A stretch of DNA of 64,000 bases from the NCBI GenBank assembly GCA_022825195.1, contig JAJDYL010000103.1, positions 7,874 to 71,873 of the forward strand, in the 5' to 3' direction. Below are positions 2,244-5,350 of the stretch, in pieces. The notes under the pieces were generated by a model, which saw only the letters and a program-made list of their open reading frames with translations, did no database searches and was not told the DNA's origin. A program made the position numbers and the translations under genes. Positions within the stretch are counted from its first letter, which is position 1, and each line of letters starts with the position of its first letter. This DNA is from Alphaproteobacteria bacterium. GTDB taxonomy: Bacteria > Pseudomonadota > Alphaproteobacteria > Bin95.

Positions 2244-2760
2244 GCCGGCTTCTCTCCTTCGGCAGTCCGGAAGGAATCTTTGACATGCTATATATGTATA
2301 TGGCCGATGAAGTTAAGGGTGATAACATGGGTTTTTCGGTAAATTACACGAGTTTGTGAACATATTTTAACTCATAAGAATAGCCTATATGGCCTATAGG
2401 TTTTTCTCTTGAAACTCACAAGAAGGGGCAGAAGCAGCTATTATATTCGAATTATTACCTTATGTATTTCTCGCATAAAATTCGTTTATAGGCATTTCCG
2501 AAAGGGAGCATATACGCAGCCCTCTTGCCGTCATGCCCTGAGCTTATCTAAGGGGGCGTTCGGGCATGACGGAAAGAGAGCCGGGACGCCGGAGGCATCC
2601 TTCGCAACGAGCATGTCCAGGGCGCTGTCGGCGCCCATGGCTCCCCTGGCCGCCGACCCGAACGGAGTTATCCTTTCCGGGCATGTGCCGGCTGCCGACC
2701 GGAAGCTCCTGCCGTCCGACGAAGTCCCCTGCCGCCCGATGCAGAGGCGAGGATTGTCCG
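2244..2760. promoter_or_regulatory. AT-rich non-coding island containing the lysR promoter/RBS, a CCTATA-N5-TATAGG palindrome (2384-2400) and an 11-bp-stem hairpin (2527-2572)
   Basis: Visibly AT-rich versus its flanks; TTGACA at 2280 followed by TATATAT-rich sequence. The hairpin is inverted GCCGTCATGCC/GGCATGACGG(a). Confidence 0.6.
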
Positions 2761-3285
2761 TTACGAACTGCTGATGGCGGCAAGGATGGGCCGGATGGCG
2801 CGGTCGGCGATGTCCGCCAGTTCGTCCGGCGTGCGGTTCTGGATCGGATGGTCCACGAACACCACGGCCGGACGCACGCCCATGGCGTCGGCCTGCGCCG
2901 TCGCGGCGTCCCGGAACTCGACGGTCGCTACCGCGCAGCCGGGCATCCCCAGGCGATCGAGCTCGTTCATGTCATGCAAACTGCACGACGTGCACGAGCC
3001 TCAGTCCGCCAGCCCTTCGACAACGATGTCGCAGCGCTCCACAAGGTCCTGGATGACGCCGCGGGGAGCCGGCTTGGTGTGTGTCGGCTTGGCGAAGCGG
3101 AGCACGTTCAGGCCCCGCACCGCGAGCCGTTGCTCCACCGTGTCGAGAAACTCCACCGACCGCTCCTTGCCGATGGAAAGCAGGCCGATGGTGAGGCCGT
3201 CGAGACTCGTCGGCGGAACGACGGGCTGGCGCATGACCGGCTCCGTCTCCGCCGTCGGGTCTCGCATCGCATAGGGTTCCGTCAT
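2761..3285 (-). CDS. UGSC-motif (seleno)protein; in-frame TGA at 3001-3003 read as selenocysteine
   Basis: ORFs 3001..3342(-) and 2761..2979(-) are in the same frame and join across a single TGA, giving …VVEGLAD-U-GSCTSCSLHDMNELD…. The likely start is the internal ATG at 3283-3285 (MTEPYAMRDP…), which overlaps the upstream gene's stop as ATGA. Confidence 0.65.
2955..3000 (-). other. candidate SECIS-like stem-loop immediately 3' of the in-frame UGA
   Basis: mRNA reads UGA-GGCUCGU[GCAC-GUC-GUGC…CAUGACAUG]ACGAGCU. A 7-bp outer stem starts 1 nt after the UGA and encloses shorter internal pairings. Confidence 0.4.
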
Positions 3286-4886
3286 GTACCGATCTCCTTG
3301 GTTACAGGGTCCACCTGGCCGGCAATCCGCATTCCGGACCATCCGCCGATCACCGCCGAGAACAGGCCCGCCGGCCCGCCGGCGCGCGCGATGATGAATG
3401 TGCCTTCGCGGAATTTGTCGATCATTTCATCCTCGCGGCCGGGGTCTATCCCCTCGGCCAGTCCGCCCGCCCCCCGCACGACCTCGCTTCCGGGGCGCTT
3501 GAGGGCAGAGATGAGGGCGTCCTCGATCTCGCTGCGGCCCCAGCCGTCGTCCTTGTAGATTGCATGGTGCTCGGGCGAGAGCACCAGCAGGGCTCCGCCG
3601 AATTCGCAGAGCTTCGGGTGGTTCACGTTCCACAGGTAGCGGACCAGCGAGGCCGTCAGTTCTTCCGCCGTCCGGCTTTTCTGGTCCACGAACCCGCTCA
3701 CCCCTTCGCCGTGGAACAGGGTGACGGCCGATGCGCCCGGCCGGATGCCGCGCGAGACCGAAAGCGGCGTCCAGTCCGGGTCGGTCTCGTCCTCGGCGAA
3801 GCAGAAGGTGTATTTGCCCGGATTGCCCTGCATTGCGCGGTCGATTTCGCCCGGCCGGCCGCCGCCGACATTGCGGATGATGAGCTGGAAGGCCCGGCCG
3901 ATGGTCGCGTTGGCCCGGTTGCCCTGGCCGAGCGCGTTCAGGCCCCAGTTCATGCCGATGCGCCGCGCGACGGGGCCGTTCACGATGATGACCGGCCCGG
4001 CGAAATGGGTCGTGCAGAGCAGGCCGTGCATGGAGAAGCCCGGTATCAGCGCCGCTTCGACCGCCGCGAGAACGGTCGGGAAATATTCGGGCCGGCAGCC
4101 GGCCATCACGGCATTGATGGCCGCCTTCTCCACGGTGCAGGGCGCGAGGTTGGGCGGAATATCCCCGATAATTTCGTCCGCCGCCCGCGTCGTGCCCGCC
4201 AGCATCCGCGCGACGCGCAGGTCGGTCGGCGGCACGATCGGCAGCCCGTCCGTCCAGCCGCGGTCGAAGGCCGTCTCCATCGGGTCGTCATGGTCCTCCA
4301 CGACGATCCGGCGCGCCGAAAGCGGGATGTCGCCGAACCGCACGGCCAGCCTCTCCGGCATCCCGAATTCGACCGACAGAGACCCGCATCCGGGCTGGTT
4401 GTCCGGCAGGCTCTCGCCGAGATCGGCGCGGCCTGTCAGTGCGCGCCACTCGGCCTTGTTCCATCCGATCGCACGTTCGGCTTCGCTGCCGCCGCTGAAG
4501 CGGATCAGCGTCGGCACGGTCTCGATGTCGAGCCGGTAGGAGAGCTCCAGGTCGCCGTCATGCCGGGGGGCCGCACCCTCGGGAAAGGCGGGATCGTCCT
4601 GCGTGACCGCTACGGCGCCCCCCGCCGCCAGTTCCGCAAGGAGCGGCGCAACGAGGACGCAGGTCGGGCAGTCCCGCTTGACCACGGCAAGCAGGCCGTC
4701 GGAAGGAAGGGCGTCGCGCCAGCCGGTCACTCGTCCGTCTCCATGTTCGGTATGCGCAGTCTGCACGGAATCCGCACCGGACTCCAATTTTCGCCGGTCG
4801 CTTTGATAAAGTGTTTGCCAAGTGTATCTGTACACGGTACACCTTGGGGCAAATCCATAATGTCTGGTTGCGTGAAGTTTCGACAC
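3282..4886 (-). CDS. thioredoxin/glutaredoxin-like CxxC domain fused to a large uncharacterised C-terminal domain; true start uncertain
   Basis: …LLAVVKRDCPTCVLVAPLL… is a CPxC redox motif in a beta-strand/helix context. The stop is ATGA-coupled to the UGSC gene. The annotated GTG start lies inside the higB remnant, so the real start is probably further in. Confidence 0.6.
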   Translation of the reverse strand: MSKLHATRHYGFAPRCTVYRYTWQTLYQSDRRKLESGADSVQTAHTEHGDGRVTGWRDALPSDGLLAVVKRDCPTCVLVAPLLAELAAGGAVAVTQDDPAFPEGAAPRHDGDLELSYRLDIETVPTLIRFSGGSEAERAIGWNKAEWRALTGRADLGESLPDNQPGCGSLSVEFGMPERLAVRFGDIPLSARRIVVEDHDDPMETAFDRGWTDGLPIVPPTDLRVARMLAGTTRAADEIIGDIPPNLAPCTVEKAAINAVMAGCRPEYFPTVLAAVEAALIPGFSMHGLLCTTHFAGPVIIVNGPVARRIGMNWGLNALGQGNRANATIGRAFQLIIRNVGGGRPGEIDRAMQGNPGKYTFCFAEDETDPDWTPLSVSRGIRPGASAVTLFHGEGVSGFVDQKSRTAEELTASLVRYLWNVNHPKLCEFGGALLVLSPEHHAIYKDDGWGRSEIEDALISALKRPGSEVVRGAGGLAEGIDPGREDEMIDKFREGTFIIARAGGPAGLFSAVIGGWSGMRIAGQVDPVTKEIGT

Positions 4887-5065
4887 AAAGGGCTACAAGC
4901 GTTCTTCGAGCGGGACGAAGCTCGGCGCCTGCCCGGATACCTCTCCATGCCCTGAAGGGCGACCGGCGGGGCCAGTGGAGCATCCGCGTGTCCGGCAATT
5001 GGCGCGTCACCTGTCGCTTCGTCGAAGGTGGGGCCGTCGATATCGATCCGGTCGACTACCATTAG
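4860..5065 (+). pseudogene. higB: higB (HigB/RelE-type killer protein) remnant, frameshifted and shortened
   Basis: The N-terminal MSGCVKFRHKGLQAFFERDEARRLPGY is in one frame. The C-terminal …LHALKGDRRGQWSIRVSGNWRVTCRFVEGGAVDIDPVDYH is in another frame. Total length is about 206 nt against about 280 nt for intact HigB. Confidence 0.6.
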
Positions 5066-5077
5066 GGAGAGACGCCA

Positions 5078-5350
5078 ATGACCGACGCGATGATGAACCC
5101 GTCCCATCCGGGAGAAACGATCCGTGATTGCATCGAGGAAATGGGTTGGACCGTGACATATGCCGCCGGACAGTTGGGCGTGGCGAGGCATACCCTCTCG
5201 CGCCTGCTCAACGGCCATTCGGGTGTTTCGCCGTCGATGGCGCTGGCGCTGGAGCGGGTCGGCTGGAGCAATGCCGGTTTCTGGATGCGGCGGCAGGCCT
5301 CCTGGGACCTGGCGCAGGCAAGGTTGCGCGAAAGCACCAGAGCCGCGTGA
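5078..5350 (+). CDS. higA: HigA-family antitoxin (XRE HTH)
   Basis: …NPSHPGETIRDCIEEMGWTVTYAAGQLGVARHTLSRLLNGHSGVSPSMALALE… is the classic HigA HTH, 12 nt after the higB remnant. Confidence 0.85.
   Translation: MTDAMMNPSHPGETIRDCIEEMGWTVTYAAGQLGVARHTLSRLLNGHSGVSPSMALALERVGWSNAGFWMRRQASWDLAQARLRESTRAA

Follow-up and report, generated by a model that had tools for sequence, protein, structure and literature searches.

The window (the whole 64-kb stretch of DNA that was analysed) carries on its minus strand a gene of the UGSC family whose reading frame runs through an internal TGA, preceded by a conserved partner gene and containing, directly after the TGA, a candidate selenocysteine insertion element (SECIS) hairpin (Table 1; nucleotides of the hairpin are numbered from the U of UGA, and codons are counted from the UGA). 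The TGA (3003..3001) joins in frame a 94-codon ORF that begins at ATG 3285 to 79 further codons that end at TAA 2763..2761. Around it the minus-strand codons are GTC GAA GGG CTG GCG GAC TGA GGC TCG TGC ACG TCG TGC AGT TTG CAT GAC ATG AAC GAG CTC GAT, which give LAD-U-GSCTSCSLHD in the read-through product.

Table 1. Positions of the genes and RNA features at the UGSC locus of the window.
Feature	Position	Strand	Details
Predicted UGSC-family selenoprotein gene	2761..3285	minus	174 codons plus stop, read through UGA
Start and stop of the UGSC gene	ATG 3285..3283; TAA 2763..2761	minus	from the sequence
In-frame UGA, predicted selenocysteine codon of the U-G-S-C motif	3001..3003	minus	TGA in 80/80 genome loci; TGC/TGT in 39 Cys homologues
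Shine-Dalgarno-like AAGGAG	3294..3299	minus	8 nt 5' of the UGSC ATG; direct reading of the sequence
Complete candidate SECIS hairpin, nt 1-46 from U of UGA	2958..3003	minus	MFE -23.7 kcal/mol, z about -3.9
Parts of the complete hairpin	2958..3003	minus	basal pairs UGAG/CUCG, lower helix, two small internal loops, upper helix, loop
Candidate SECIS core, nt 15-33	2971..2989	minus	8-bp upper helix GUCGUGCA/UGCAUGAC plus apical loop; begins 11 nt past UGA
Apical loop G23 U24 U25	2979..2981 (G 2981, U 2980)	minus	presumed SelB contact nucleotides
Lower-stem 5' arm, nt 4-13 (GGCUCGU + CA)	2991..3000	minus	pairs with 2969..2958
Lower-stem 3' arm, nt 35-46 (UG.ACGAGCUCG)	2958..2969	minus	fold; co-variation of the arms
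Conserved partner gene, 534 codons	3282..4886	minus	directly 5' of UGSC; its TGA stop and the UGSC ATG overlap as ATGA

Several lines of evidence indicate that the two halves of the UGSC gene form one protein. The read-through product matches the Pfam family PF24696 (UGSC) in a single stretch, residues 7-171, with the UGA inside it (E 1.7e-34; 119.8 bits against a cut-off of 25), and scores 120.2 bits with the NCBIfam model NF041046 ("UGSC family (seleno)protein"), about 5 bits below that model's cut-off of 125. The family's U-G-S-C motif is present, with D-U-GSCTSC in the window and D-C-GSCTSC in P0001, P0002 and 39 metagenome loci, and these Cys homologues are uninterrupted proteins across the site of the UGA. 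GC3 is 0.86 5' of the UGA and 0.89 3' of it in the same frame. Compared with 74 distant orthologues (<75% identity), the protein is 59% identical on the 5' side of the UGA and 57% on the 3' side, and 52% of identical-amino-acid codons differ synonymously on both sides. By these comparisons, protein-level selection persists 3' of the UGA, and the gene belongs to a known (seleno)protein family in which the aligned sequences mark the UGA as a recoding site, with selenocysteine as the predicted residue.

Public gene calls cut UGSC selenoproteins at the UGA into a 95-residue and a roughly 73-residue ORF (L130 1501-2031; P0003-P0041), and the database entries for the family are mostly such cut-off halves. 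The gene described here should be entered as a single 174-residue selenoprotein.

The partner gene accompanies UGSC with great regularity: in nearly all loci, whether of the Sec or the Cys form, its tblastn match runs right up to the UGSC start. Searches of the partner against Pfam and NCBIfam gave no match; a PDB sequence search returned weak thioredoxin matches (E 0.08-0.9) over residues ~57-146, around a CPTC motif, and the same search with UGSC found nothing. Since homology to its orthologues begins at residue ~47-65, the true start probably lies downstream of the annotated GTG at 4886. The partner may correspond to the 'Unknown_1' domain that PMC2398784 reports as fused to UGSC, and the two genes form a conserved operon whose function is probably thiol-redox.

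Two further elements flank this pair. About 180 nt 3' of the UGSC stop lies a near-perfect inverted repeat (2517-2584) with a 21-bp stem and a folding energy of -49.7 kcal/mol across 101 nt (z -5.4). It has no U-run after it and is the source of spurious miRNA-like Rfam matches; possible identities are an operon-end hairpin and a repeat element. On the opposite (plus) strand, overlapping the nominal 5' end of the partner, is a HigB-like toxin remnant (4811-5065), whose match to PF05015 (E 2e-6) is confined to the C-terminal half of that family, followed by an HTH_3 (HigA-like) gene at 5078-5350.

The initial annotation had proposed that a stem-loop directly downstream of the recoded UGA is a SECIS candidate, and had described it as a 7-bp outer stem, GGCUCGU/ACGAGCU with one G·U pair, that begins 1 nt after the UGA and encloses self-complementary GCAC/GUGC and CAUG/CAUG segments. 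That outer stem is indeed present on the minus strand, where the sequence after the TGA reads GGCTCGT GCACGTCGTGCAGTTTGCATGACATGA ACGAGCT C. Its start needs correction: pairing begins directly after the UGA, and in the minimum-energy fold the UGA is itself paired (U1.G46, G2-C45, A3-U44). Nor do the interior segments form separately, as the interior folds into one 8-bp helix closed by a 3-nt loop. In this core, GUCGUGCA-GUU-UGCAUGAC, nucleotides 15-22 (G15-A22) pair perfectly with nucleotides 26-33 (U26-C33).

The region 3003..2955 folds as one continuous hairpin at -23.7 kcal/mol (ViennaRNA), and its stability exceeds that of shuffled controls, so that the folding check named in the initial annotation came out in favour of its proposal. 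Dinucleotide shuffles average -13.6 +/- 2.6 kcal/mol, none of 200 is as stable as the native sequence (z -3.95), and a 67-nt version of the hairpin also lies below its shuffles (z -2.98). Synonymous resampling of all 15 downstream codons under local codon usage gave a mean of -12.3 kcal/mol, with 0.3% of samples reaching the native energy; when resampling was restricted to the flanks of the core, 5% did so. The core alone folds at -10.6 kcal/mol, a value that none of 200 shuffles matches. A scan of the window for further copies of the core motif returned none besides the element itself and a single one-mismatch match, which is at chance level.

To place the hairpin among its relatives, the protein and its database relatives were aligned and one genome per bacterial or archaeal species was then scanned, which confirmed 319 loci; the best 80, labelled mostly Alpha-, Beta- and Gammaproteobacteria, were kept. 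All 80 of these best loci have the TGA followed by GSCTSCSLHD. The core hardly varies among the 87 distinct orthologues with a UGA, which come from several bacterial groups, and the orthologue comparison thus agrees with the proposed SECIS in that the structure is common to the UGA-containing genes. In an ungapped 54-nt alignment that starts at the TGA (83 sequences, two paralogues among them), nucleotides 13-33 are nearly invariant and nucleotides 6-12 and 34-42 are variable. G23 and U24 are present in 83/83, and position 25 is U or C, with G in one sequence (L130). RNAalifold retains the 8-bp core alone as the consensus and gives it a covariation term of only -0.18. Being near-invariant, the core shows little classical covariation, and only two of its eight pairs vary. 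One of these, pair 15-33, is GC in 81 sequences, AU in 3, GU in 2 and AC in 1 (Fisher p 4e-4), its A-U cases representing about two independent events. The other, pair 18-30, is GU in 75, GC in 10 and AU in 2, and is broken in none.

The lower stem behaves differently. In the form described by the initial annotation it is kept only in the closest relatives (L001-L012 and similar), and in other clades the lower stem is made of different sequence in a shifted register; the basal pairing UGAG/CUCG is conserved. When lower-stem arms from different orthologues were combined, native combinations folded at -9.59 kcal/mol and chimeric ones at -7.89, and none of 200 permutations reached the native value. 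Since native arm pairs beat chimeras, the lower stem is evidently kept by co-evolution and not by sequence conservation. Covariation counts on fixed structures, with two lower-stem registers, found that ~82% of cells pair, against 25-43% in slid controls, and few pairs change on both sides, owing to the register shifts between clades and to the invariant core. For this reason we relied on the synonymous-site analysis, the Cys control and the chimera test. The main feature is not the outer stem, which the initial annotation had stressed, and the functional, presumably SelB-binding part is the inner 8-bp stem-loop.

Some individual loci deserve mention. Two of them (L069, TGA 617-619; L072, TGA 1317-1319) carry a second, divergent UGSC-like selenoprotein gene, VGD-U-GSCSSCSLHDAVA, in which the SECIS core recurs with A15-U33 as a compensatory pair; in L072 this second gene lies just 5' of the partner gene. 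In the metagenomic locus L134 (ena:ERZ24894577:ctg303953l) the 75-nt segment around the UGA matches the window except at three synonymous sites, and the variable MNELDRLGMPG stretch is shared; the source is probably the same organism or one very close to it. A contig labelled Chloroflexi (L008, VXPS01000183.1) encodes a UGSC protein 87% identical and a partner 89% identical to those of the window, like alphaproteobacterial MAGs, and is probably mis-binned.

A conserved hairpin inside a conserved peptide raises the question of which of the two is under constraint. Conceivably the stem-loop is a passive by-product of the peptide GSCTSCSLHD: the codons for Ser-Cys and His-Asp would be complementary by chance, and the RNA as such would be without function. 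The peptide does favour pairing, since a 6-7-bp GUCGUGC/GCACGAC helix is possible even in some Cys homologues (L083, L090, L097, L103), and its invariance accounts for part of the invariance of the nucleotides. Codon choice in the Sec forms, however, goes well beyond what the peptide asks for. Codons +4 to +10 have a normalised entropy of 0-0.51 over the 87 distinct Sec forms, against 0.62-1.0 for the remaining conserved codons up to 20 codons on either side of the UGA, Leu+14 (0.49) excepted; the gene-wide entropy table (codons -88 to +73) shows the same collapse at +4 to +10. The codons themselves are ACG in 83/85, TCG in 85/87, TGC in 87/87, AGT in 87/87, TTG or CTG in 86/87, CAT in 77 with CAC in 10, and GAC in 82 with GAT in 5. 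Ser+7 is thus fixed as the rare codon AGT and Cys+6 as TGC in every sequence, whereas the neighbouring Cys+3 is TGC in 54 and TGT in 33. Leu+14 lies in the basal stem, where its codon, CUC in 63/84, pairs with the GAG of UGAGG, and its synonymous diversity is reduced. In the comparison with the 74 orthologues below 75% identity, 6% of identical-amino-acid codons in the core differ synonymously, compared with 52% in the flanks, so the loss of synonymous variation in Sec forms is confined to codons +4 to +10.

The Cys homologues (36-39 sequences with TGC or TGT at the UGA site; the 39 are metagenome loci, to which P0001 and P0002 are added) serve as a control for this comparison. They encode nearly the same peptide, GSCTSCS-T-HD, yet choose its codons freely (entropy 0.58-0.99). 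The full helix of 8/8 pairs is found in 85/86 Sec forms and in 0/39 Cys forms, and the mean core energy is -10.6 kcal/mol in the former against -4.3 kcal/mol in the latter, a contrast that largely reflects two separate clades rather than many independent gains and losses. The one residue at which the two peptides part, codon +8, also follows the RNA: it is Leu (UUG/CUG) in 86/87 Sec forms and Val (GUG) in a distant orthologue labelled Chloroflexi, with variation at the loop-facing first base only, and Thr (ACN) in all Cys forms. U26 and G27 must pair. Read from these alignments, it is the RNA that dictates the amino acid at +8 (Leu or Val as opposed to Thr). With free codons and no full helix in the Cys forms, a rare serine codon fixed throughout the Sec forms and a residue shift that suits the RNA, the by-product reading is largely refuted by the Cys control, and we regard it as highly improbable.

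Taken together, the hairpin is very probably a bacterial SECIS element in the mRNA of a UGSC-family selenoprotein, with SelB binding and selenocysteine at the UGA as its inferred role. The most likely mechanism, by analogy with the E. coli system, would be recruitment of SelB·GTP·Sec-tRNASec. The upper stem-loop (nucleotides 15-33, with the loop G23 U24 U25) would be bound during translation by the C-terminal domain of SelB, which would contact the loop through G23/U24 and bring GTP and Sec-tRNASec. As the helix begins 11 nt past the UGA, the bound factor would sit at the mRNA entrance when the UGA enters the A site, and selenocysteine would be delivered in place of release factor 2 ending the chain. 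The lower stem, the UGA included, may stabilise and present the upper hairpin until the approaching ribosome melts it. That the UGA specifies selenocysteine rather than another amino acid, and that the genome holds the sel machinery, we likewise infer: within the 64-kb window ARAGORN finds a tRNA-Thr only and no tRNA-Sec, and Pfam scans of ~50 ORFs hit no family of the Sec machinery, with no selA, selB or selD among them, so the Sec competence of the genome is assumed.

Two other accounts of the UGA have to be set against the SECIS reading. The hairpin might drive events at the UGA that do not involve selenocysteine, such as ribosome pausing, programmed read-through with a near-cognate tRNA, or a regulated stop that leaves a 94-residue product at low selenium. 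The sequestration of the UGA in the basal stem would suit this, as would the sel genes not found in the 64-kb window and the 95-residue N-terminal piece that public gene callers list as a protein of its own; but it does not account for the invariant loop G-U, which defines SelB-binding SECIS loops and sits here at the fdhF positions, or for the alignment of the UGA with the active-site-like Cys of a CxxC-type motif in homologues, in a family that is catalogued as a selenoprotein family. We consider it very unlikely. Least probable of all, to our minds, is that the TGA genuinely terminates the first of two small genes and that the stem-loop is a terminator, an attenuator or a DNA palindrome for a regulator. 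The inverted repeat TGCA-N3-TGCA is palindromic in DNA and annotation pipelines do give two ORFs, yet a single Pfam domain crosses the TGA, the full-length Cys homologues are continuous, and the downstream piece is without a conserved start and in frame in all orthologues, which together reject two separate genes. An intrinsic terminator is rejected as well: the stem is followed by GAUCGCCUGG and not by a U-run, and 2250..5100 contains no terminator-like site.

On the SECIS reading, the locus offers a clean textbook case of an RNA signal inside a coding sequence, with the Cys homologues as a natural control and a sharp map of the synonymous sites and the amino acid that the RNA dictates. The way selenocysteine decoding is understood is unaltered by the finding. 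One more speculative idea, which we hold to be possible though rather doubtful, is that the UGSC SECIS is an unusually rigid 19-nt module shared across phyla (GUCGUGCA-GUN-UGCAYGAC, with fdhF geometry and no U17 bulge) whose near-invariance exceeds what SelB binding calls for. This could result from horizontal transfer in which the two-gene UGSC/partner operon took its SECIS along, or from a second role, for example in selenium-dependent control of the operon. Were it true, the module could be used as a compact, portable SECIS and as a diagnostic that tells Sec from Cys forms by sequence alone.

How the element compares with known systems can be stated in some detail. Bacterial consensus criteria (bSECIS, Zhang & Gladyshev, as summarised in PMC13188914) call for an apical loop of 3-9 nt on an upper stem of 4-16 bp, a G at loop position 1 or 2 with G or U as its usual successor, a UGA-to-loop distance of 16-37 nt, and an energy of -7.5 kcal/mol or lower (PMC13188914). 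The window element has a 3-nt GUU loop on an 8-bp stem; its loop opens with G23 U24 over an A-U closing pair, in the pattern N1-G-[G|U]-N-N2; 19 nt (positions 4-22) separate the UGA from the loop; and its energy is -10.6 kcal/mol for the core and -23.7 kcal/mol for the full hairpin. Like its bacterial counterparts it lies within the coding region directly 3' of an in-frame UGA (nucleotides 1-46), with no structural difference from the model. With this agreement, the structure conserved in orthologues and the stability above shuffles, the SECIS candidate proposed from the initial reading of the DNA is well supported.

The E. coli fdhF element, whose sequence we checked (100% identity in 5,420 genomes, annotated fdhF) and folded beside that of the window, consists of a 17-nt upper stem-loop (nucleotides 15-31) at a distance of 11 nt from the UGA; its key nucleotides are U17, G23 and U24 (PMC8659212). 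The two share a lower helix at nucleotides 6-10 and a 2-bp helix at nucleotides 12-13 (counted from the U of UGA), an upper helix that begins at nucleotide 15 and thus 11 nt past the UGA, G23/U24 exposed in the loop, and UGCA at nucleotides 26-29 of the 3' arm. The concern that a spacing of about 3 nt would be shorter than in fdhF-type elements therefore falls away: measured to the upper helix the distance is the same, with G-U at nucleotides 23-24 in both, and the fdhF fold likewise starts pairing at A3. They differ in that fdhF has a bulged U17, whereas position 17 here is a C paired with G31 and none of the 83 aligned sequences has a bulge in the 8-bp helix; in the loop, which is GGUC (4 nt) in fdhF and GUU, GUC or GUG (3 nt) here; and in stability, as the 23-nt upper hairpin of fdhF folds at -5.7 kcal/mol, compared with -10.6 kcal/mol for the perfect and much more stable 8-bp helix here. 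The host genes are unrelated, UGSC being a small redox-type protein.

Rfam models of SECIS cover eukaryotic and a few other lineage-specific types. These families share the biological role of the element, but none matches it at the level of the covariance model: a scan of 2500..3500 with E up to 10 returned no SECIS family and chance miRNA-like matches only.

The closest known system is the UGSC family itself (NF041046 / PF24696; Zhang & Gladyshev 2007, 2008), with which the locus shares the U-G-S-C motif, the length and the domain match across the UGA, and from which it differs in nothing essential. UGSC-containing proteins were catalogued in 2007-2008 as a selenoprotein family with strong predicted SECIS elements (PMC1976440; PMC2398784; PMC13188914), reported in Alphaproteobacteria such as Hyphomonas neptunium (PMC1976440) and ranked with the most abundant selenoprotein families of ocean metagenomes, with 255 Sec and 21 Cys forms in GOS (PMC2398784). 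Since such selenoproteins and their predicted SECIS elements have been on record since then, the hairpin is an ordinary example of a known mechanism in a known family, and of a kind already known; its mildly interesting extras are an fdhF-like geometry without the U17 bulge and a SECIS that fixes rare codons and one amino acid of the protein.
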